From: Verrucomicrobium spinosum
GTDB lineage: Bacteria; Verrucomicrobiota; Verrucomicrobiia; JADLBR01; JAIBCM01
Length of the DNA stretch: 34,686 bases
Direction of reading: 5' to 3'
NCBI GenBank assembly: GCA_020718645.1
Contig: DYRQ01000012.1
Coordinates: 1 to 34,686, forward strand
The notes beneath the pieces are model-generated. The model was not told the DNA's origin and searched no databases. It saw only the letters and a list, made by a program, of their open reading frames with translations. The position numbers and the translations under genes were made by a program. This document shows, piece after piece, positions 6,710-34,136 of the stretch; within the stretch, counting starts at the first letter, position 1, and every line of letters starts with the position of its first letter.

Positions 6710-8020
6710 TCACGCTTTCATTCCGAACTGAGCCAGCATTTTCTTCATTTTGCCAGCGTTTTTCATCATTTTTTTCATCTGCTGAAACTGCAGCAACAGT
6801 TCGTTCACAGCCGTGACTGTCGTGCCGCTTCCCCGAGCGATTCTTTGTCTTCGCTTAGCATTAATCATATCGGGCTTCCTCCGCTCTTGCGGGGTCATAC
6901 TCAAAATGATCGCCTCGGTGCGTCGCAGTTGTTTTTCCGCACCTTGGGAATCTTTTACCTTAGGGGCTCCGGGTATCATGCCAAGCAAATTCTCTAGCGG
7001 ACCCAATTTTTTAATTTGTTGGAGCTGGACGAGGAAATCGCCGAGGTCAAACTGTTGCTTGCGCAGTTTCTCCTCCATGTGCTGCATGTTCTCAAGATCA
7101 AAAGCTTCCTGCGCCTTCTCCACCAGACCAACGACATCGCCCATGCCGAGCACACGCGAGGCGAGGCGCTGAGGGTCGAGCAACTCGATGTTGGCGAGCT
7201 TCTCTCCTGTGCCGATAAATTTGATCGGAACACCGGTGACTTGCCGCATGGAGAGCGCGGCACCACCTCTGGCATCGCCGTCCAACCGCGTAAGCACCAG
7301 TCCGGTCAAGGGTGTAGCCTGTTTGAAACGCGTGACGATATCCACGGATTTCTGGCCCAGTGCGGCGTCTGCGACAAAGAGGGTTTCCTGAGGGGATACT
7401 GCCTCGCGCACGGCGGTTAATTGGGCGAGCAAAGCTTCGTCAAGATCGAGGCGGCCTGCCGTGTCAAAGATGATGGTGTTGCACCCTAGCTCCTTGGCGA
7501 GGTCGAGCGCCTCGCGGCAGACGAGCACGGGGTCTTGCGTATCTCTGCGGACATGGATGGGCACGCCGACTTGTGCGGCCAAACTTTCGAGCTGGGTGAT
7601 GGCGGCAGGGCGCTGGAGATCGGCGGCGACTAGCATCGGCTTTTTGCCTTTGGCTTTGAGCCAGCCAGCGAGCTTGCCCGCCGTGGTGGTTTTACCGCTA
7701 CCCTGGAGACCGCAGAGGAGTATTTTTAGGGGGTCGCCCTGTGCCAAGGGGCTAGGTTCTCCGAAGAAAGATGCTAGCTCATCTTGGAATATTTTTACGA
7801 ACTGCTGCCCGGGTGTGATGCTCTGCAACACCTCTTCGCCCAAGGCGCGCACCCGCACTTTTTCCACGAACTCGCGGGCCACGGTAAAGTGGACATCTGC
7901 CTCGAGCAGCGCGAGCCGTATCTGCTTGCACGCGTCAGCCACATTGGCCTCGCTGAGCTTGCCGTATCCGCGCAGGTTTTTAAAAACTTCCTGCAATTTA
8001 TTTGCCAGTTGATCAAGCAT
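6710..8020 (-). CDS. ffh: signal recognition particle protein Ffh
   Basis: N-terminus MLDQLANKLQEVFKNLRGYGKLSEANV aligns with E. coli Ffh MFDNLTDRLSRTLRNISGRGRLTEDNV; GTPase P-loop GLQGSGKTTTAGKLA; M-domain Met-rich C-terminus; the 540-aa track ORF carries a spurious 104-codon N-terminal extension. Confidence 0.95.
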   Translation of the reverse strand: MLDQLANKLQEVFKNLRGYGKLSEANVADACKQIRLALLEADVHFTVAREFVEKVRVRALGEEVLQSITPGQQFVKIFQDELASFFGEPSPLAQGDPLKILLCGLQGSGKTTTAGKLAGWLKAKGKKPMLVAADLQRPAAITQLESLAAQVGVPIHVRRDTQDPVLVCREALDLAKELGCNTIIFDTAGRLDLDEALLAQLTAVREAVSPQETLFVADAALGQKSVDIVTRFKQATPLTGLVLTRLDGDARGGAALSMRQVTGVPIKFIGTGEKLANIELLDPQRLASRVLGMGDVVGLVEKAQEAFDLENMQHMEEKLRKQQFDLGDFLVQLQQIKKLGPLENLLGMIPGAPKVKDSQGAEKQLRRTEAIILSMTPQERRKPDMINAKRRQRIARGSGTTVTAVNELLLQFQQMKKMMKNAGKMKKMLAQFGMKA

Positions 8021-12255: not shown

Positions 12256-12897
12256 CTACTTCCCTCGTGGCTTGGCAAAAGTCCACAGAGCCCAGATGAG
12301 CAGACCGACGCCCATCCAAGAGACCCAAGTGTGAATGCCAGAGTGATCCGGACGCAGCGTGGTTTCGGGTTTTCCTGTGATGGCCAATGATGAGGTGATG
12401 GTGCTGATGACCGGGTCGTCCCACGCAGGCTGGTTTTTGTTCGTGATGACGAGGCTCAAGGTGAGACCGGGCTGAGCCACCAGCAGGTTGACGACGGTAA
12501 TCGGGTTGGTGGGATCAGCGCAGGTGGCGCGCACGCGCAAGGCTTCCCATTCCCCCACCATGGTTTCCTGCACTTCCTGAATGTCGAGGCGCTGGTCGGT
12601 CATGGATTTTTTGTAGCCGGACAAGAAGGTTTCTTTGCCACTGCCCCGCAGGGAGGGGCGTCCGGGGGAGGAGAAGGCATAGAGTGCCAGTCGCCGTTGG
12701 TCGTCAGCATCGTTGGCTAAGAGGATGCATTTGGTGGGATACTGGCTCTTGTCCAGCGTGGTCCAGCCTCCATCGTCCGGCAGCGTGATCGAGCAGCCGT
12801 GGCTCTGCAACGAGATCATCTCCCCGCACGACTGCCAAGGAGAGCAAACACTGAGCAGCGCAGCGAGGACGAGAGCGGCGAAAGTCGGGCGCAGCAT
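12256..12897 (-). CDS. secreted or lipoprotein-like hypothetical protein (last gene of the FHA operon)
   Basis: start ATG 12897 (TGA-c-ATG junction with the upstream gene) gives MLRPTFAALVLAALLSVCSPW... signal peptide; C-terminal hydrophobic segment WVSWMGVGLLIWALWTF; no recognisable domain. Confidence 0.5.
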   Translation of the reverse strand: MLRPTFAALVLAALLSVCSPWQSCGEMISLQSHGCSITLPDDGGWTTLDKSQYPTKCILLANDADDQRRLALYAFSSPGRPSLRGSGKETFLSGYKKSMTDQRLDIQEVQETMVGEWEALRVRATCADPTNPITVVNLLVAQPGLTLSLVITNKNQPAWDDPVISTITSSLAITGKPETTLRPDHSGIHTWVSWMGVGLLIWALWTFAKPRGK

Positions 12898-12898
12898 G

Positions 12899-13693
12899 TC
12901 AGGCGGGCGGTTGCTGTTGCGCAGAGCGAGCAAAGTAAGCTTTCACTGCCGGATCGCCGTAGAAGACCATGGCGAGGATGCCGACGATCAGGGAAAAAAC
13001 ATTACCGGTGATGATAGAGACAATTTCCATGATGGCGACATGCGTGGCGGGCTTGGTGGCGCGAATCGGGTCGGACAAAATTTTCGAGGCGTAGATGATT
13101 TCAAACACCGCCAGCGTGGCCAGATAGGCAGCCGGGATGATGGTGAACACGATGCCGACGAGGAAAATCGAAAGACCAGCGAAAATCCAACCCACAGCAC
13201 CGAGGGCATTCAAAATACCACTGATCAAGGTCAACACCGCGATCGTAGTCAGCTTGCCCGGCTTAACTCCGGTGGAGGTAGGGGTGGCTGGGGAGGGCGC
13301 GGGGTAAGGCGCGGGTGCAGGGGAGGCGTAGGGCGGCTGTTGGGGCTGGGGTGCCTGCGGCTGGGGCATGGTCATGGCAGGCAGCGCGTATTCGAGGCGA
13401 ACGCCCGGGCCGTCTTTGCCTAGGTAGAGAACCGAGCCCGGAGGTAAGGGCGAGCGGGTCACTTTTTGTGAGTTCAAAAAAGTGCCCTCGCGGCTGCCGC
13501 TATCTTCCACCCACCATTGTCCGGCGTTGTGGAAAACCGCACAGTGGCGAGGGGACACCGTTTTGTCCCAAGTGGGATCGAAGCGGATATCGCAACCGGG
13601 GTCGGCACCGATGGTGACAGGGAGAGAGGTGTGGACAGTTTTTTTGCCGCGCTCGAAGCCTCCGAGCCGTGTAACAGTAAGTTCTGGGTTCAT
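12899..13693 (-). CDS. FHA-domain (non-canonical) - Pro-rich linker - 4-TM membrane protein
   Basis: FHA-like TIGADPGCDIRFDPTWDKTVSPRHCAVF...SREGTFLN with SxxH present but the conserved Gly-Arg replaced by Gly-Ala; PQPQAPQPQQPPYASPAPAP linker; four hydrophobic helices including EIIYASKIL; ATGA overlap with the upstream paralogue. Confidence 0.7.
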   Translation of the reverse strand: MNPELTVTRLGGFERGKKTVHTSLPVTIGADPGCDIRFDPTWDKTVSPRHCAVFHNAGQWWVEDSGSREGTFLNSQKVTRSPLPPGSVLYLGKDGPGVRLEYALPAMTMPQPQAPQPQQPPYASPAPAPYPAPSPATPTSTGVKPGKLTTIAVLTLISGILNALGAVGWIFAGLSIFLVGIVFTIIPAAYLATLAVFEIIYASKILSDPIRATKPATHVAIMEIVSIITGNVFSLIVGILAMVFYGDPAVKAYFARSAQQQPPA

Positions 13694-15996
13694 ATTTTTC
13701 CTCGTGATGTGCCGGTGAATCCTATCGGGTCAATACCGTGCTGGCGCACGGCGTCGAGATCCATGATGAGAAATCTGGAGCCTGGTTTGTTGAATTCCGC
13801 CGCATTTTTCCTCGTGCGGTTGGTGGCCTCGGAGATGGCGCGGACAAAACTTTCCCCCGAAGGACCGGCGGCGCGGATCTGGTCCACCACACCTTGGAGC
13901 GCACCGTCGTCGCCAGCAGCAGCCAGCGGAGCCGCCCCGCGTGCATCCACACTGCCGAGCATAGTGGTCTCCAGATAGACCATGGTTTTCCCATCACGAT
14001 CGAGGGCAAAACCCATATACATGTGGCCGGGCACAGTGACGAGGAAGCTGGAGACACCAATCTTGCGGAGCACGCTGGCCATCAGCACGCTGCCATCTAC
14101 GCAGTTGGCTTGGGCGTGTCCCAGAGATTCCTCCAAGAAGCGGACATGCTGGCTGTAGATATATTCGGACTCCGCGGAGGGGGTGGTGATGTTACTGTAT
14201 TTCACCCCCCGTTTTTGCAGGGCGCTCCAGATGGCAAACGCCTCCTTCAACACGCCTTCCGGCGGTTTTTGATAACCCGCAAATTCGTTGACCACGCGTG
14301 TGTCCAGAGCCTCGCGCAGGAGAGTGTCCACGGCCGGGTGATGCTCGTTCACAAATGCCGCGAACATCCACATCATCGGGGTAACTCCAGCCTCTTGCGC
14401 CGTTTTGGCAGCGGGGTTTTGCACGACGATAAAGGGGCAGTCGTTGACCGAACGCACACGCACAGTGAGCGTTTTTTGTCCCAGGTCGCTATTGCCGAGC
14501 ATCACGCGAAAAGTGAGATTAGCCGGAGTGATCTGGCGGTTGTTTTTGAGTGTTTCGTAGCGGTAGTTGATTTTTGGGAAAACGAAATGTTCGATATTAC
14601 CCTGTTCGAGCGTGCCTTCGAACACGCTGGGCTCGATCAATTCGGAGCCAGTAACCTCCACACGCAGCGCGGTTCGGAATGCCGGGCTCTTGATACGGAT
14701 ACCGACGAGGCCGTTGGGATCACCGAGGCGGGGCTGCATCGCGGCAGAGGGAACAGCAGGCGGCACCACGGCGGCGGTGGCGAGGAGGTAGGAGGGAAAA
14801 ATTTGGTTGTCGGCGAAGACGACGGGTTCCCATTCGCCTGGGGTCTGGAGCAGGGATTTCCCGAGAGCCGCGGCCTGCTGTCCGCGCTCAGGTGAGCCGG
14901 GTGTCATGGAGGCGCCGGGCTTGGCTGCGAGTTGACCCTGCCACCACGCCTGCGCACCAGCGGAGGCCGCTGAGGTGGAAGCAGCGGCGGGCGCATTGAC
15001 CACTTCGTTGAGCGAAGGGAGTGTCGTGGTCGCGGCAGTGCGCGCACGATCCTCGGCATCGGCCAAGGCAAAAGCCCCCGAGATGAAATGGCAGAGCAGC
15101 ACGAGGAAAAATGCCCCTGCCACGATGCCGCCCACCAGTCCCGCTCCAAAACCGTGTCCCTGTGCAGGTGCCGGAGGCATGCCAGGTCCGATAGGCTGCA
15201 TGGCAGGACCTGCCAGATATTCTTTCACCTTCCTGTCTCCCATGAAAACCAGCGAAAGGATGCCGGTGATCAAGGAGAAAATATTCCAGAACAAGATAGC
15301 CACGATCTGCATCACTGCGACAAACAGTGCCGGTTTCCGGATGCGCGCAGGGTCAGGCAAAAGGCGTGTGGCGTAGAGGATTTCCAAAATGCCAAGCGAC
15401 AAGAGATAGACGGGCGGGAGTATCTGGAGCAGTGGGGCAGACTTGAAAATTGTCAATCCGGGGACACCCAGAAAGCCGAGCAGATTCAACACGATCGCGT
15501 AGAGGATGGCGGCGCCAAAAATCAGATCTATCGCAGCCAAGATATTGAGCACACCACTGATCATGGTCAGCACCGCCACCACTTGCACCGTGCCCGGACG
15601 GGCGGCCGTGGCTCCCATCCAAGGCTGGGCTGCATTGGGTGCAGTGTAAGAGGGTTGCTGCATCGCAGGTGAGGGAGCCTGAATTAAAACAGGCTCGCAG
15701 CGCACACGGGGTCCGCCGACACCCAACTCGATCTCAGTGCCCGAGGAGAACGCGGTCGGAGCCTCGATACGACGCCCGGCGATACGGGTGCCTTGCGAGG
15801 AACCATCGTCGAGCACGAACCATTGTTTTCCATCGTATTCCAGATGGCAGTGGCGCGGGGAGACAGTCTTGTCCCATGTGGGGTCAAAGCGGACATCGCA
15901 GCCGGGGTCGGTGCCCAGCGTGACGGTGCGGTTCTGGAGTGTCATGGGTTCACGCGAACCGAAGCCGACAAGTTTAGTGATTTTGATGCCGCTCAT
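13690..15996 (-). CDS. FHA-domain (non-canonical) - 4-TM - fifth TM - extracytoplasmic transglutaminase-like (Cys/His papain-fold) domain protein; tandem paralogue of 12899..13693
   Basis: N-terminal LGTDPGCDVRFDPTWDKTVSPRHCHLEY (about 50% identical to the neighbour over FHA plus 4TM); TMs including EILYATRLL; C-terminal ANCVDGSVLMASVLRKIGVSSFLVTVPGHMYMGFALD...YLETT resembling the transglutaminase-core Cys...His...Asp/Glu arrangement. Confidence 0.7.
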   Translation of the reverse strand: MSGIKITKLVGFGSREPMTLQNRTVTLGTDPGCDVRFDPTWDKTVSPRHCHLEYDGKQWFVLDDGSSQGTRIAGRRIEAPTAFSSGTEIELGVGGPRVRCEPVLIQAPSPAMQQPSYTAPNAAQPWMGATAARPGTVQVVAVLTMISGVLNILAAIDLIFGAAILYAIVLNLLGFLGVPGLTIFKSAPLLQILPPVYLLSLGILEILYATRLLPDPARIRKPALFVAVMQIVAILFWNIFSLITGILSLVFMGDRKVKEYLAGPAMQPIGPGMPPAPAQGHGFGAGLVGGIVAGAFFLVLLCHFISGAFALADAEDRARTAATTTLPSLNEVVNAPAAASTSAASAGAQAWWQGQLAAKPGASMTPGSPERGQQAAALGKSLLQTPGEWEPVVFADNQIFPSYLLATAAVVPPAVPSAAMQPRLGDPNGLVGIRIKSPAFRTALRVEVTGSELIEPSVFEGTLEQGNIEHFVFPKINYRYETLKNNRQITPANLTFRVMLGNSDLGQKTLTVRVRSVNDCPFIVVQNPAAKTAQEAGVTPMMWMFAAFVNEHHPAVDTLLREALDTRVVNEFAGYQKPPEGVLKEAFAIWSALQKRGVKYSNITTPSAESEYIYSQHVRFLEESLGHAQANCVDGSVLMASVLRKIGVSSFLVTVPGHMYMGFALDRDGKTMVYLETTMLGSVDARGAAPLAAAGDDGALQGVVDQIRAAGPSGESFVRAISEATNRTRKNAAEFNKPGSRFLIMDLDAVRQHGIDPIGFTGTSRGKI

Positions 15997-16039: not shown

Positions 16040-17578
16040 TTATCGGTTCTCCGACTGGTATCTGGCCTTGAGCGCCTCAGCGACGGCGGGGGCGATCTCG
16101 GGAGATTTTTCCGCGATCATGGTCAGGGCTTGCTCGGGCGAAAGGCCTTTGCGCATTTCGAGTTCAGCGAGTTTGAGGATGCGATCCGCCTGTTCTCCCG
16201 AGAGGGTGGAGAGGAGGGCTTGGAAATTCGAAGCGCCGCGCAACTTGAGGATATCCGCCTCGCGCTGCAACTCTTGCTCGTCCTCTTTTTTCTTCAGAGA
16301 GAGTTTGGCTTCTTTGACGAGACGCAGTGCCTCGACGCCTTGTTTGGCGAGTTCGACATCGGTCTTGGCTTGCTCCACTTGCTGTTCGCGTCCGAGTTCG
16401 GCGCGGGTGCGTTGTTGGTGGATTTCCTCGTCGAACTTCAGGCGGTTGCCTTCGATCTCGTGGCGTGTCTCGAGGATTTCCGATTGGTGCCGGAGTTTCT
16501 GTTCGTCGAGCCGGTTGGAGATTTCTGATTTGCGTCGCTCGTAATCTTGCTGGAGCCCCTCGAGCTGAGTCTTGTGTTCGGCGGCTTGGAGGAAGCGCTT
16601 GGCCTGAGCCTCGCGGTCGGCGCGATTGAAGCCGAGTTCGTGGGTGACCTGCTCAAATTCGTCCCGCAACATTTCTTCGTCGCGGTAGGCAGAGACTTTT
16701 TCTGCACGCAGCGCGTCGCGCAGACGGCGGTTGATGTCGTATTCGCGGGAGAGGCGGCTGATCTCGCCGAGTTTCTCTTTGAAGGCATCAATCGCTGGAC
16801 CGCCGAAATCCGCCAGTCGCACACCGACGATCGTGAGCCCGAAAGTCGCGAGGAGTGGCTGGAGTTTTTCTTGGAGAGAACCCTCGATCATCTCGCGGAC
16901 ATTCATCTCGATCATGAGGTCATCTACCTTCTTGTCGGCGACCATGGTTTGAACCGCGTTGCGGACATCGGCGTAGAAGCGGTTGGACAAATCTTGTGTC
17001 GAGAAACTGGCCGTGTGAGTGGAGATCAGTTGGGCGACGAAGAGCTTGGCGTCGGAGACTTGAAAGAGCAGGCGCAGACGGGCGTCTATCGGGATTTGTT
17101 GATCGGTGCGCAGTTCCGGCAGGACGAAATCCACTTCGGCAGACTGCATGTCGAGGAGGATAGCGTGGCATTGCCTGCCACCATCAAGACCGAGCAGTCG
17201 CTGGAAAAAGGAGTCGAGCGTGTGGTAGCCAGGCTCGAGTTGCCCGTGGAACTGGCCGTTTTGGAAAACCAGCGCGAGCGTGCCATCGTCCACTTGCAAC
17301 CCGTGGTGCAGAGCCTCTTTGGGGTTCTGGATATCCACGCGGGCGGCGAAGTCCGAGGGAGAACGGTGCCAGCGGTCGCTGTAGAAAGCTTTGCGTTGGT
17401 CGGGCGTCTGAGCCCCGCCGCATTTCCAGCAAAATTTCGAATCCCCACCGACGGAGGCGCTGCATTGAGGGCAACTGCTCCACGAGGTCGCGGAGGGGCA
17501 TCCGCAGGAGTTGCAGTATTGGGCATCCTTCGAGAGAGGATTGCCGCAGTTTGGACAGCGTTCGCTTAAAAATCCCAT
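16040..17578 (-). CDS. double zinc-ribbon - SPFH/band-7 (flotillin-like) - long coiled-coil protein
   Basis: CPNCG...CNSCG and CPQCS...CWKCG ribbons; SPFH-like core (ILLDMQSAEVDFVLPELRTDQQIPIDARLRLLFQVSD...); about 200 aa of E/Q/R/L-rich coiled coil; AAGGA RBS 7 nt before the ATG. Confidence 0.8.
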   Translation of the reverse strand: MGFLSERCPNCGNPLSKDAQYCNSCGCPSATSWSSCPQCSASVGGDSKFCWKCGGAQTPDQRKAFYSDRWHRSPSDFAARVDIQNPKEALHHGLQVDDGTLALVFQNGQFHGQLEPGYHTLDSFFQRLLGLDGGRQCHAILLDMQSAEVDFVLPELRTDQQIPIDARLRLLFQVSDAKLFVAQLISTHTASFSTQDLSNRFYADVRNAVQTMVADKKVDDLMIEMNVREMIEGSLQEKLQPLLATFGLTIVGVRLADFGGPAIDAFKEKLGEISRLSREYDINRRLRDALRAEKVSAYRDEEMLRDEFEQVTHELGFNRADREAQAKRFLQAAEHKTQLEGLQQDYERRKSEISNRLDEQKLRHQSEILETRHEIEGNRLKFDEEIHQQRTRAELGREQQVEQAKTDVELAKQGVEALRLVKEAKLSLKKKEDEQELQREADILKLRGASNFQALLSTLSGEQADRILKLAELEMRKGLSPEQALTMIAEKSPEIAPAVAEALKARYQSENR

Positions 17579-17593
17579 AGTAATTCCTTGGAG

Positions 17594-17608
17594 GCAAGGG
17601 GCGTGCCA
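17594..17608 (-). promoter_or_regulatory. sigma54-type -24/-12 element (TGGCAC-gcccc-TTGC) 15 nt upstream of the SPFH gene ATG
   Basis: reverse complement of 17594-17608 reads TGGCACGCCCCTTGC, a 10/10 match to TGGCAC-N5-TTGC. Confidence 0.4.
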
Positions 17609-17660
17609 AAGACGGTGAGACTCAAATACGATCGAGTCTGCGCGATGGAATGCCCGGGGT

Positions 17661-17945
17661 TCATTTTTCTAAAAATTGGAAATGGAAACGAGCCACGCGC
17701 AGATGATCGCCGTGGCGCAAACGCTGGCGCCGGGCCACGCGGTGCCCGTTGAGGTAAGTGCCGTTGCGGCTGCCGAAGTCTGCCACCCAATAGCGGTGGT
17801 CGGAGTCGGGCATGACCGCGCCATGCGAGCGGGAGACAGCGGGGTGTGGGAGCACGAGATCGTTATCGGGGTTGCGCCCAAAAAAGAGTGTGCCACCCAG
17901 AGGTTCCGAGTCGCCGTTGCCGAGCATGAGGCGGGCGTGGTTCAT
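17661..17945 (-). CDS. small soluble FHA-domain protein (canonical FHA)
   Basis: start at MNHARL (ATG 17945); LFFGRNPDNDLVLPHPAVSRSHGAVM...FGSRNGTYLNGHRV carries the canonical GR, SxxH and NG FHA residues; the upstream part of the track ORF is a probable extension. Confidence 0.75.
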   Translation of the reverse strand: MNHARLMLGNGDSEPLGGTLFFGRNPDNDLVLPHPAVSRSHGAVMPDSDHRYWVADFGSRNGTYLNGHRVARRQRLRHGDHLRVARFHFQFLEK

Positions 17946-17980
17946 GGGGATGTCGCACCAATGTCTGAGGCGGCACTCGA

Positions 17981-18217
17981 TCAGCGCACGAAAAGGGGCT
18001 GGTCGGGCGTGTTGTGTTTCAGGGAAGATTCGCCCTGCTGCACGCTTTTCGTTTTGATGGGTTCGGGCTGCGGCTCGAGCACATACGATTTTTTCACCTG
18101 AAGCCCATCGCCGCACGGGGTGTGTCCGTAGTTCGGTGAGACAGGGCCTTCGGTGACTTGGCTGGCGCAGCCGGCAAGGAGGGCGATAGCGGGGTAAAGG
18201 AGGGTGATTTTTTTCAT
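17981..18217 (-). CDS. small lipoprotein
   Basis: MKKITLLYPAIALLAGCASQ, signal peptide with canonical lipobox LLAGC. Confidence 0.5.
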   Translation of the reverse strand: MKKITLLYPAIALLAGCASQVTEGPVSPNYGHTPCGDGLQVKKSYVLEPQPEPIKTKSVQQGESSLKHNTPDQPLFVR

Positions 18218-18271
18218 GGGGCTTTTTCTCTCAGGAGTGGTCCTTGTGGGGTGGAAGGGTGACGGGGTGAG

Positions 18272-18730
18272 TTAGCGGACTTCGATGAAAACAGGTTGCG
18301 AGTTGAGTTCCGCTTGGATGCGGGATTCGGTGGCGAGGTTGGCAGGGAAGAAGCCCGAGCCATCGAGCCACTCGCGCATGACCACGCCGCCGACGGTGCG
18401 GCCGCGGCTGATGCCTTTGATGTAGTAGTTGGTCTGGCCGGATTTTTCCTCGACGATCACCTGGGCTGTCCCTGTGCCTTCGCGGGGGACATAGAAAGCT
18501 TCGCGTGCTTTGCCGAAGCCGTGTTTGAAGACAAAGACAGGTCTGATCTCGCCTCGCTTGAGGTAGAGCATGGTGGAGCCTTTGGGCGGGGCTTTCGAGT
18601 GGGGCGTCTTTTTGACGATCACCGTCTCGTCCATGTCAAATTTCTCTTGGGCCTGCAGGCTGGAGGCGTAGGTGGCAAACAATAGGACTCCCAACGCAGC
18701 AGTCAGAAGGTGGCTTTTTCTTGTTCTCAT
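18272..18730 (-). CDS. secreted hypothetical protein (first gene of the FHA operon)
   Basis: start at MRTRKSHLLTAALGVLLFATYASSLQAQ (signal peptide; ATG 18730, GGGAGA 7 nt upstream); the longer track ORF to 18922 overlaps yraN. Confidence 0.5.
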   Translation of the reverse strand: MRTRKSHLLTAALGVLLFATYASSLQAQEKFDMDETVIVKKTPHSKAPPKGSTMLYLKRGEIRPVFVFKHGFGKAREAFYVPREGTGTAQVIVEEKSGQTNYYIKGISRGRTVGGVVMREWLDGSGFFPANLATESRIQAELNSQPVFIEVR

Positions 18731-18745
18731 ATATATCTCCCTTGG

Positions 18746-18760
18746 GCAAAAGTTGTGCCA
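18746..18760 (-). promoter_or_regulatory. sigma54-type -24/-12 element (TGGCAC-aactt-TTGC) 15 nt upstream of the ATG at 18730
   Basis: reverse complement of 18746-18760 reads TGGCACAACTTTTGC, a 10/10 match; same spacing to the start codon as the 17594 site. Confidence 0.4.
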
Positions 18761-18870
18761 ATAGTTATGCTGAAACACGCCGCTATTGTTAGACGGGGCA
18801 GAGGCGGTGGCAAGCCTGAATCCGCAGCAGTAAAATAGCTCAGTCTCCGGTGCTGCAGGGGTTGGTCGGG

Positions 18871-19284
18871 TTAACTCATGTAGGGTTCTGGTAGAGCGAA
18901 AGCGTGTTCGATTACCGAACACTCGACGGGCTTATCCTCATGCAGATAGACTTCGACAACATCGAATCGGTAAACTAGGTCGCGCTGGTCAAGGAGCCGC
19001 AGGTAGGCTTGGGCGGCTTTGGCGATTTTTCGTTGCTTGGCTGGTGTGACCGCTTCGGCGGGCCGTCCGAAGGCATCGCTACTCCGGGCTTTGACTTCGG
19101 TAAACACCAGCACCGTGCCGTGGCGGCAGACGAGATCAATCTCGCCACCGGAGGAGGCGAAGCGTTGGAGTAACACTTTGTAGCCCAGGCTACGGAGGTA
19201 GGAGGCGGCGGCCTCTTCGCCGAACCGTCCGCGTTCCTCAGGGCATGCCGAAGCCGGGCAGTGCCGCTTGTGATACGGGTGCAA
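18871..19284 (-). CDS. yraN: YraN/UPF0102-family endonuclease-like protein (start uncertain; candidate TTG 19284)
   Basis: GRFGEEAAASYLRSLGYKVLLQRFASSGGEIDLVCRHGTVLVFTEVKARS matches the YraN family; no in-frame ATG near the conserved N-terminus; overlaps the 3' end of rnhB. Confidence 0.65.
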   Translation of the reverse strand: MHPYHKRHCPASACPEERGRFGEEAAASYLRSLGYKVLLQRFASSGGEIDLVCRHGTVLVFTEVKARSSDAFGRPAEAVTPAKQRKIAKAAQAYLRLLDQRDLVYRFDVVEVYLHEDKPVECSVIEHAFALPEPYMS

Positions 19285-32268: not shown

Positions 32269-32784
32269 ATGGCTCGCACCACCACCCCAAAAGCCGTCAA
32301 CCCTCGCGTGGGCATTATCATGGGTTCTGATTCCGACTGGGAAACTATGCAACACGCCGCGGCGACACTCGGAGAACTAGGGATCCCTTGCGAATGCGAG
32401 ATTGTCTCGGCGCACCGGACGCCCAAAAAAATGGTGGATTACGCCGAGAGTGCTGAAAAGCGGGGTATCGAAGTCATCATCGCGGGCGCAGGTGGAGCTG
32501 CCCATCTGCCGGGTATGACCGCCTCGATGACCGTGCTGCCTGTATTGGGTGTGCCGGTGCAGAGCAAGACTTTGAGCGGTCTGGATTCGTTGCTTTCTAT
32601 CGTCCAGATGCCCGCCGGAGTGCCTGTGGGCACCCTGGCCATCGGCAAAGCCGGTGCCATCAATGCCGCGCTGCTCGCCGCGAAAATCCTCGGGCTGTCC
32701 GACGCCGTTGTCCGGGAGAGAGTGCGTGATTTTCAGGAGTCTCAGACATCCGATGTCCTAGGTAGGAAACTCCCCGTTTCTTGA
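32269..32784 (+). CDS. purE: N5-carboxyaminoimidazole ribonucleotide mutase
   Basis: start at [24 protein letters not shown]; PurE core AHRTP...[14 protein letters not shown]. Confidence 0.95.
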
Positions 32785-34136
32785 AGTTGATGAATGCCCC
32801 TCTCCCCAAAGGCTCCACTATCGGCGTGGTGGGCAACGGTCAGCTTGGACGCATGTTCATCCAAGCCGCTCACCAGATCGGCTATCAGGCGTGGGTCTTT
32901 GGTCCCGGCTCGGATTCTCCCGCTGGCCAGGTGGCCGACCGCGAATTTGATGCAGATTATTCTGACACCGCGGCGCTCGACGAGTTTGCCGCCGGGGTGA
33001 AGGTGGTGACTTTTGAGTTCGAGAACATTCCGCGCGAGACGCTCGATCACTTGGCCGCCCGTGTGCCGACCTACCCTTCGCCCAATGTTTTGCACACCAC
33101 GCAGCACAGGTATCGGGAGAAGTCGTGGCTCAAGAGCAACGGCTTTCCCTTGCCCGAATTTGTGCTCGTTCGTTCCCGTTGGGAGCTGGACCAAGCGGTC
33201 GAGGACATCGGACGCCCCTGCGTGTTGAAGACAGCCTCCTTTGGCTACGATGGCAAGGGACAGAGCAAAATCGAAGTCGGCACAGACTTGGACGCGGCAT
33301 GGGACGCTCTCGGCGGCGGAGAGGCTGTGCTCGAAGAGTGGGTGTCTTACGACAAGGAATTGTCCGTGGTCTGCGCCCGCAATAGCCAGGGGCATACGCG
33401 CTGTTTTCCTGTCTGCCACAATACGCACAGCCGCCACATCCTCGCCGTGACCCAGGCTCCGGCCAATATTCCGTCCGAGATCATGCACAAGGCGCAGGCC
33501 TACGCGGTGCAGGTCACGCAGGCGCTCAAGGTAGTGGGGTTGCTGACATCGGAATTATTTCTGACAGCCGAGGGCGACATTCTTTTCAACGAACTAGCGC
33601 CGAGGCCGCACAACTCCGGGCATTTTTCCATTGATGCCTGTGACAGCAGCCAGTTTGCCCACCATGTGCTGGCAGTCACCGGACGGCCCTTGGCACCGAT
33701 CGTGCAGAAAAAGCCGGCGATGATGGTCAATCTGCTTGGCGACCTGTGGCAGTCGGGCGATCCGCCGTTGGATCAGATGGCGGCGTTGCCGGGGGCGCAC
33801 TTGCACCTTTACGGCAAAAAAGAGATGCGTGCCCGCCGCAAAGTGGGGCATTTGACAGTGTTGGGAGAGTTGCCCGACCCGCTTCGTGAAACGCTCTGGA
33901 GATTGGGCACCGACCAAGTGTTCGAAGCACCGGCGGAACTCGGATTTGCCGAGCGGCTTCAGGGCCGACTTAACCGGGTGCCATTTGCGCCGTTCGACAT
34001 CGTATTGGCTGGCGGAGAACGCTGGCGTGTGGATGCCCCGGACGCAGTGAGCCAGATGCGAGGACGGTGGTTCTATGCCGGAGCCGATGGCGTGCCGAGA
34101 GAGATACCGACAGCAGAGACACAGTTGTCAGTTTGA
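32781..34136 (+). CDS. purK: N5-CAIR synthetase (ATP-grasp) with an about 65-aa C-terminal extension; start TTG 32781 or ATG 32790
   Basis: [14 protein letters not shown]-terminus and ATP-grasp core; overlaps the purE stop. Confidence 0.9.

Follow-up and report, generated by a model that had tools for sequence, protein, structure and literature searches.

The first 34,686 nucleotides (nt) of contig DYRQ01000012.1 of Verrucomicrobium spinosum (assembly GCA_020718645.1; the whole stretch is called the window here) raise the question of how a promoter can function when it lies almost on top of a start codon. On the minus strand, a gene for a small secreted protein and a gene for an SPFH (Band 7) protein are each preceded by an exact match to the -24/-12 element of sigma-54 promoters, TGGCAC-N5-TTGC, and each match ends 15 nt before the ATG. 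A first, sequence-only reading of the window proposed that these elements, termed P1 and P2, are functional sigma-54 promoters controlled by an enhancer-binding protein encoded elsewhere, with the caveat that a start site at the canonical distance would leave almost no leader and would cut off a putative Shine-Dalgarno (SD) sequence. The analysis described here favors activator-dependent sigma-54 promoters that give near-leaderless mRNAs, and the whole chain is given a probability of roughly 0.6 in this organism.

The two elements, TGGCACAACTTTTGC for P1 and TGGCACGCCCCTTGC for P2, match the consensus at 10 out of 10 positions, and both carry an additional 5' T and 3' C to give TTGGCAC...TTGCC. 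The 15-nt spacers that follow, ccaagggagatatat and ctccaaggaattact, respectively, run directly into the ATGs at 18730 and 17578. The flanking T and the T-rich -15/-14 positions also fit the extended sigma-54 consensus. P1 and P2 are located in intergenic gaps of ~140 and 82 nt, respectively, and share the strand of the gene that follows. Both start codons can be regarded as secure because the N-terminus MGF(F/L)xERCPNCG is kept in all SPFH orthologs, and because the signal peptide of the secreted protein and its orthologs begins at the same ATG. The pair of exact motifs reported in the sequence-only reading, each with N15 before an ATG, is therefore upheld.

Dinucleotide-preserving shuffles give a chance expectation of 0.11 exact matches per window compared with three observed, and none of 100 shuffles contains at least three. 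The third match, TGGCACCGGCTTTGC, corrects the earlier claim that the window is free of other full matches. This match also continues as TTGC(C) and lies antisense within purE, a gene identified by its Pfam AIRC domain (E 2e-65), with no open reading frame (ORF) downstream of it. It is encoded by the codons of a conserved AIGKAGAI peptide and is probably a by-product of coding, though sigma-54 binding at this intragenic site is conceivable. One-mismatch matches are present within the coding regions of ffh and purK; they are likely due to chance, with a frequency at the level of the control patterns.

The promoter assignment relies largely on conservation in related genomes. The comparison set consists of 73 related verrucomicrobial loci (L001-L073), of which 26 are from genomes, four were obtained by exact protein look-up, and 43 are from metagenomes; together with the window they comprise 803 kb, and the counts of sites below refer to this set. 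The motif occurs 78 times exactly and 94 times with one mismatch, the GG and GC being held fixed, compared with 1 and 38 occurrences of the reversed pattern and 0 and 24 of a scrambled pattern. The exact motif is thus ~78-fold above control patterns in these loci. When grouped by downstream protein, 131 of the 172 sites fall into 13 groups of at least two sites, and 10 of the 13 groups retain at least two distinct promoters once identical copies are removed. In the ten conserved gene families, all sites share the strand of the downstream gene and lie immediately before its start. Distinct promoters with the element number 28 for the secreted-protein gene and 14 for the SPFH gene (the window and 13 others), and alignments of orthologous promoter regions reveal that only the -24/-12 positions are conserved while the flanks diverge. 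Bases outside the search pattern agree with the general sigma-54 consensus: TGG is preceded by T in 73% of sites, CAC is followed by G-G in 68% and 63%, and TTGC is preceded by T in 70%. The pattern, represented in matrix form as TTGGCACGGnnTTTGCC, is asymmetric.

On the grounds of sequence and position, together with conservation and an associated activator gene in relatives, P1 and P2 are very probably sigma-54 promoters by descent and sequence, as the sequence-only reading had suggested. Predictions of sigma-54-dependent promoters have also been made for Opitutia, a class within Verrucomicrobiota (PMC12316311). A separate observation is that the -12 GC element is directly followed by C in 92% of sites (TTGCC), a position occupied by A or T in the general consensus. 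The C may be a lineage-specific promoter feature, possibly linked to the variant activator loop described below.

It is very improbable that the matches are not promoters and instead represent chance, an operator for a dimeric factor (the half-palindrome TGGCA-N7-TGCC), or an RNA element beside a ribosome-binding site. The GGCA...TGCC segments are partly self-complementary, and one exact match in the window, that in purE, looks clearly to derive from coding constraints. However, the 78 exact matches stand against 0-1 for the controls, the conserved sites are strictly oriented to the downstream gene, and sigma-54 activator genes co-occur with the sites. A palindromic operator was ruled out by the asymmetric extended consensus, in which the base after TTGCC is not A, so that no true palindrome exists. 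Known RNA families were ruled out as no Rfam family matches at E <= 1 in positions 17300-19100. P1 and P2 have no similarity beyond the 17-nt motif, which excludes a longer repeat or mobile element and removes the possibility, raised with the original proposal, that the motif belongs to a longer repeated element unrelated to transcription.

The spacing between the GC element and the ATG provides the main evidence on where transcription would begin. Across conserved sites the TTGC-to-ATG distance extends from 12 to about 80 nt with an abrupt lower limit at 12. Among 89 distinct conserved sites, one has a spacing of 0-11 nt, 18 have 12-14 nt, 14 have 15-19 nt, 10 have 20-29 nt, and 46 have at least 30 nt. 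The range of 12-19 nt thus accounts for 32 sites (36%), and the most common spacing is exactly 12 (n = 8 sites). In some families all or almost all members have short spacings; these are the families of a 280-amino-acid (aa) protein (11 promoters, N12-18), a 125-aa protein (seven promoters, six of them with N12-14), and a ~550-aa zinc-ribbon protein (N12-24). An N16 site is located at 15613-15627 of L016, a locus of Opitutaceae bacterium D2-102. The secreted-protein gene has N14-15 in four lineages, namely the window, L027-30, L032-37, and L053, whose spacers are unrelated (ccaagggagatatat, cggttaataatttgt, cataatagaaaagtt, and ccaatctccattcg). The tight geometry of P1 is therefore, as judged from these sequences, conserved within the clade. 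The same gene has N30 in three further loci and N38-69 in Opitutaceae. N15 as a fixed lineage-wide rule, which the sequence-only reading had put forward for checking, was rejected given this range of spacings; the N15 shared by P1 and P2 is membership of a short class at 12-19 nt.

The wall at N = 12 is not reproduced by the start-calling pipeline. Random positions passed through the same pipeline gave 147 spacings of 0-11 nt and 103 of 12-19 nt. The corresponding numbers for the real motif are 5 and 33, across its 99 distinct sites that have an ORF downstream (Fisher p = 1e-7; binomial p = 1e-11 for enrichment at 12-19). A pipeline artefact was rejected as the source of the wall since neither random positions nor control motifs produced one under the same ORF-calling. 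The promoter geometry of sigma-54 is defined as -24/-12 relative to +1 (PMC7057263). When the C of the GC element is placed at -12 or -13, the predicted start is the 12th-13th nt after that C; on this canonical geometry, the starts should fall at 18734/18733 for P1 and 17582/17581 for P2, with predicted leaders of 3-4 nt. A wall at 12 would be expected if the promoters are active and the transcript has to include the start codon. As the wall lies at the predicted start, it implies that approximately one-third of the regulon promoters would give leaderless or near-leaderless mRNAs. ATG is the start codon in 31 of 32 short-spacing sites of relatives, a count that is biased because the search favored ATG.

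In the relatives, the operon is adjoined by a gene for a ~550-aa protein that contains FHA, Sigma54_activat, and AAA_lid domains. This activator gene is present in 36 loci and in 28 of the 38 loci of at least 9 kb. Its domains are well matched in Pfam (FHA, E 1e-17; Sigma54_activat, E 3e-69). The FHA domain is N-terminal, the AAA+ domain contains the Walker A motif GETGSGKE, and the chain ends directly after the lid domain; no helix-turn-helix (HTH) or other DNA-binding domain was found in the protein. The loop that contacts sigma-54 reads GAFTDA, rather than GAFTGA, in 35 of the 36 loci. The neighborhood in relatives includes several Hanks-type Ser/Thr kinases and a PP2C phosphatase, whose genes have the same promoter element. 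The element precedes a gene for a PP2C-type Ser/Thr phosphatase and several genes for Pkinase-PEGA/Sel1/TonB_C kinases, for example in L068 and L051. The regulon appears to regulate its own signaling components, and, given the kinases and phosphatase within it, the system looks like one in which Ser/Thr phosphorylation acts on an FHA activator that in turn controls a sigma-54 regulon. In L027, a divergent intergenic region of 135 nt harbors two back-to-back sigma-54 promoters, with N15 at the secreted-protein gene and N44 at the SPFH gene. Such a region would offer essentially no space for an upstream enhancer; an activator with no DNA-binding domain needs none, which fits compact promoters.

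Taken as a mechanism, P1 and P2 would belong to a regulon conserved in Verrucomicrobiota that covers secreted, SPFH, and FHA proteins, Ser/Thr kinases, and a PP2C phosphatase. From established sigma-54 biology, RNA polymerase-sigma-54 would bind the -24 GG and the -12 GC as a closed complex. The FHA-domain AAA+ activator, presumably switched by Ser/Thr phosphorylation, would open this complex and, having no DNA-binding domain, would act from solution. Its gene is located beside the operon in relatives and in this genome would have to be encoded elsewhere. The transcript would begin 12-13 nt beyond the GC element, leaving ~2-4 nt ahead of the AUG, and translation would follow a leaderless, Shine-Dalgarno-independent route.

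Several observations weigh against this mechanism, and some of them support alternatives. Sites within one orthologous group are not statistically independent, which limits the spacing statistics; counted by group, the minimum spacing falls within 12-19 in 8 out of 10 orthologous groups and in none below 12, a single mismatched N8 site being set aside. The N15 of P2 is unique to the window, with N22-79 in the other SPFH orthologs. A predicted leader of 3-4 nt is at the margin of the usual definition of leaderless mRNAs, and no start-site map for Verrucomicrobia was found in a literature search of incomplete coverage. SD-like sequences, AAGGGAG (GGGAG) at P1 and AAGGA at P2, are positioned 6 nt before the ATGs and look like the corresponding sequences of two other window genes, rplS and the rhomboid gene. 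Additionally, no terminator-like hairpin is present before P1 or P2, which makes leadered read-through transcripts possible.

The latter two observations are central to the main rival account, in which P1 and P2 are real sigma-54 sites but the translated mRNAs are leadered. These mRNAs would arise from upstream promoters or by read-through, from rplS-rnhB-yraN into the secreted-protein gene and from P1 into the SPFH gene, and would use AAGGGAG and AAGGA as ribosome-binding sites. The short-leader transcripts from sigma-54 would then be minor or poorly translated, or the bound holoenzyme would mainly modulate read-through. The co-directional arrangement of all genes in the array is consistent with this account, as is a weak sigma-70-like match, TTGCCA-17-AACAAT, that precedes P1; around P1 and P2, only weak matches for intrinsic terminators or strong sigma-70 promoters were detected. 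The account is nonetheless unlikely. The orthologous N14-15 spacers contain no SD-like sequence, the L027 gene is divergently transcribed so that read-through is impossible there, and a wall at N = 12 across the regulon would have no easy explanation if the translated mRNA did not come from the sigma-54 start.

SD sequences are, moreover, almost never present in the long leaders of the regulon, where an SD-like 4-mer occurs at -20 to -4 in only 2 of 50; among short spacers overall, SD-like 4-mers occur in 6 of 32. Many window genes have no SD, and some Verrucomicrobia have been reported to be SD-scarce (PMC10783764). As SD sequences are rarely used in the regulon, the caveat about cutting off an SD carries little weight. 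With near-leaderless transcripts from P1 and P2, the AAGGGAG and AAGGA sequences would lie upstream of the predicted starts and be unused by the sigma-54 transcripts; they may be due to chance or serve read-through transcripts. The hexamer CCAAGG, described in the sequence-only reading as resembling a ribosome-binding site, is indeed present in both spacers after TTGC(C), with a slight difference in register. None of the orthologous promoters contains it, and a role as a conserved element or ribosome-binding site was rejected for this reason. CCAAGG may function as an SD in read-through transcripts, may be specific to the species, or may be coincidental.

The remaining points against activator-dependent transcription concern the source of the activator. 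Neither a sigma-54 activator nor rpoN was found in the window, which covers 34.7 kb of this genome, by Pfam analysis of 18 window proteins and six-frame motif scans, and no RpoN-box peptide was detected in the window or the fetched loci. In the colinear relative L053, P1 is followed by the genes for the secreted protein, the lipoprotein, and the FHA activator, and then by P2 and the SPFH gene; in the window, a 94-aa FHA-only gene occupies the syntenic position of the activator (L053 and L027). The only full-length match of this 94-aa protein, and also its best, is to the activator FHA domain, at 41% over 83 aa for L053 and 36% for L027; it is closer to this domain than to the other FHA domains of the window. 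The operon-linked activator thus appears to have lost its AAA+ module in the window lineage, which leaves either a paralog acting in trans or P1 and P2 as relics.

As relics, P1 and P2 would be of sigma-54 descent but would no longer work here following the loss of the AAA+ domain, a reading for which the position and similarity of the 94-aa FHA gene and the lack of an activator motif in the window both speak. It is nevertheless quite improbable, as both elements still match at 10 out of 10 positions with the lineage-specific flanking T and C, the downstream genes are all intact, and an activator with no DNA-binding domain acts in trans, so that a paralog elsewhere would suffice. Given the perfect motifs and intact downstream genes, activation of P1 and P2 by such a paralog would be favored over relics.

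The features of the window and the related loci are listed in Table 1. The minus-strand array consists of rplS, rnhB, yraN, P1, the secreted-protein, lipoprotein, and FHA genes, P2, the SPFH gene, two genes for FHA and transmembrane proteins of 768 and 264 aa, and a gene for a ~220-aa protein. The secreted protein displays 46% identity to a 150-aa protein of L027 and 38% to a 181-aa protein of L006, and the lipoprotein is orthologous to a 93-aa protein of L027. The SPFH protein has 109 homologs, mostly in Verrucomicrobiota; homologs at 46-63% identity are found in Terrimicrobiaceae, Chthoniobacterales, Opitutaceae, and related groups, in keeping with a verrucomicrobial source of the window. 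The gap of 43 nt between the SPFH gene and the 768-aa FHA gene contains no sigma-54 match, and the latter gene is probably co-transcribed from P2. In relatives, the genes for orthologs of the 264-aa FHA protein (MNPEITLTRL...) are preceded by a separate sigma-54 element at N31-65. The 82-nt gap after the 94-aa FHA gene contains a perfect 6-bp inverted repeat, AGACTC-N10-GAGTCT, 9 nt upstream of the P2 -24 element; it may act as a weak terminator or bind a protein, or may have arisen by chance.

Table 1. Positions of promoter elements, genes, and other features (window coordinates unless a related locus is named)
Feature	Position	Strand	Basis or remark
P1 sigma-54 -24/-12 element	18746..18760; extended TTGGCAC..TTGCC 18745-18761	-	Exact match; same element at orthologous secreted-protein genes
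P1 spacer, 15 nt, ccaagggagatatat	18731..18745	-	Sequence
CCAAGG in P1 spacer	18739-18744	-
P2 sigma-54 -24/-12 element	17594..17608; extended form 17593-17609	-	Exact match; element at SPFH orthologs
P2 spacer, 15 nt, ctccaaggaattact	17579..17593	-	Sequence
CCAAGG in P2 spacer	17586-17591	-
Weak sigma-70-like match before P1	18813-18785
Inverted repeat upstream of P2	17618-17639	-
152-aa secreted protein gene	18272..18730	-	Signal peptide; no Pfam family
78-aa lipoprotein gene	17981..18217	-	Lipobox match (LPAM_1)
Stand-alone 94-aa FHA protein gene	17661..17945	-	Pfam FHA, E 1e-19
512-aa zinc-ribbon and SPFH (Band 7) protein gene	16040..17578	-	Pfam Band_7 and DZR
768-aa FHA and transmembrane protein gene	13690..15996	-	Pfam FHA
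264-aa FHA and transmembrane protein gene	12899..13693	-	Pfam FHA; 4-nt overlap with preceding gene
Last array gene, ~213-225-aa protein	12256..12897	-	Signal-like N-terminus; no Pfam family
Third exact match, TGGCACCGGCTTTGC	32645-32659	-	Antisense within purE
purE	32269-32784	+	Pfam AIRC
One-mismatch match in ffh	7993-8007	-
One-mismatch match in purK	33691-33705	+
Activator gene, L027	2670-4337	-
Activator gene, L006	7304-8953	-
Divergent intergenic region, L027	5077-5211
Sigma-54 element at signaling gene, L068	5750-5764	+
Sigma-54 element at signaling gene, L051	6386-6400	+

Sigma-54 promoters are among the best-understood bacterial promoters and normally have a leader that carries a ribosome-binding site. 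The elements described here share with canonical sigma-54 (RpoN) promoters (glnAp2, nifH, and pspA; YTGGCACGrNNNTTGCW) the GG/GC spacing and the extended consensus T-TGGCAC-GG..T-TTGC. They are also alike in having a gene for an AAA+ activator nearby, in the relatives, and in driving envelope- or membrane-associated products. The differences from the textbook promoters are the C after the GC element, a near-absent leader as predicted, and, in the relatives, a GAFTDA FHA activator with no DNA-binding domain. In one-third of the sites the ATG is 12-19 nt after the GC, which leaves no room for a leader or SD. For comparison, the listed distance from chlamydial sigma-54 promoters to the start codon is 67-180 nt (PMC7482065).

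Activators of sigma-54 with no DNA-binding domain have precedents. FlgR of Helicobacter is one example; another is CtcC of Chlamydia, a member of the same superphylum (PMC7482065). The activator of the relatives resembles both in that it ends after the AAA+ lid with no HTH, which would allow activation from solution and compact promoters. In contrast with these proteins, its sensor is an FHA rather than a receiver domain, and its loop is GAFTDA rather than GAFTGA. The closest parallel in signaling logic is Myxococcus xanthus, for which Jelsbak, Givskov and Kaiser reportedly described in 2005 FHA-domain enhancer-binding proteins coupled to Ser/Thr kinases. Both systems combine FHA and sigma-54 AAA+ domains, and in both the genes are linked to several that encode Hanks-type kinases and to one for a PP2C phosphatase. 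However, the Myxococcus proteins reportedly carry a DNA-binding HTH, whereas the activator described here belongs to another phylum, has no HTH, and is associated with target promoters that abut start codons.

The transcripts predicted from P1 and P2 resemble the leaderless mRNAs of Actinobacteria, Deinococcus, Leptospira, and Caulobacter in a predicted 5' untranslated region of <=5 nt, an AUG start, and a transcript that would contain no SD. They differ in that the known leaderless mRNAs have been described from sigma-70-family promoters, and in that the leaderless status of the P1 and P2 transcripts is a prediction from geometry. Leaderless mRNAs and sigma-54 promoters have both been reported in start-site studies of Sinorhizobium meliloti, Leptospira, and Chlamydia, with the two not being linked. 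No report of a sigma-54-driven class of leaderless transcripts was found in the literature, within incomplete coverage. It is tentatively proposed, at slightly less than even odds, that a lineage-wide class of such mRNAs exists in the Ser/Thr-kinase/PP2C/FHA regulon of Verrucomicrobiota, with a GAFTDA activator that lacks a DNA-binding domain and starts located at the AUG or a few nt from it, and that P1 and P2 are members of this class.

If this is true, enhancer-dependent transcription would feed directly into leaderless translation, and strictly activator-gated transcription would be coupled to Shine-Dalgarno-independent translation. Verrucomicrobiota is a phylum with almost no experimental promoter or translation data, and the spacing limit at 12 nt would provide an in silico ruler for the transcription start. 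The FHA activator, with its GAFTDA loop and no DNA-binding domain, would tie Ser/Thr-phosphorylation signaling to sigma-54 outside Myxococcota.

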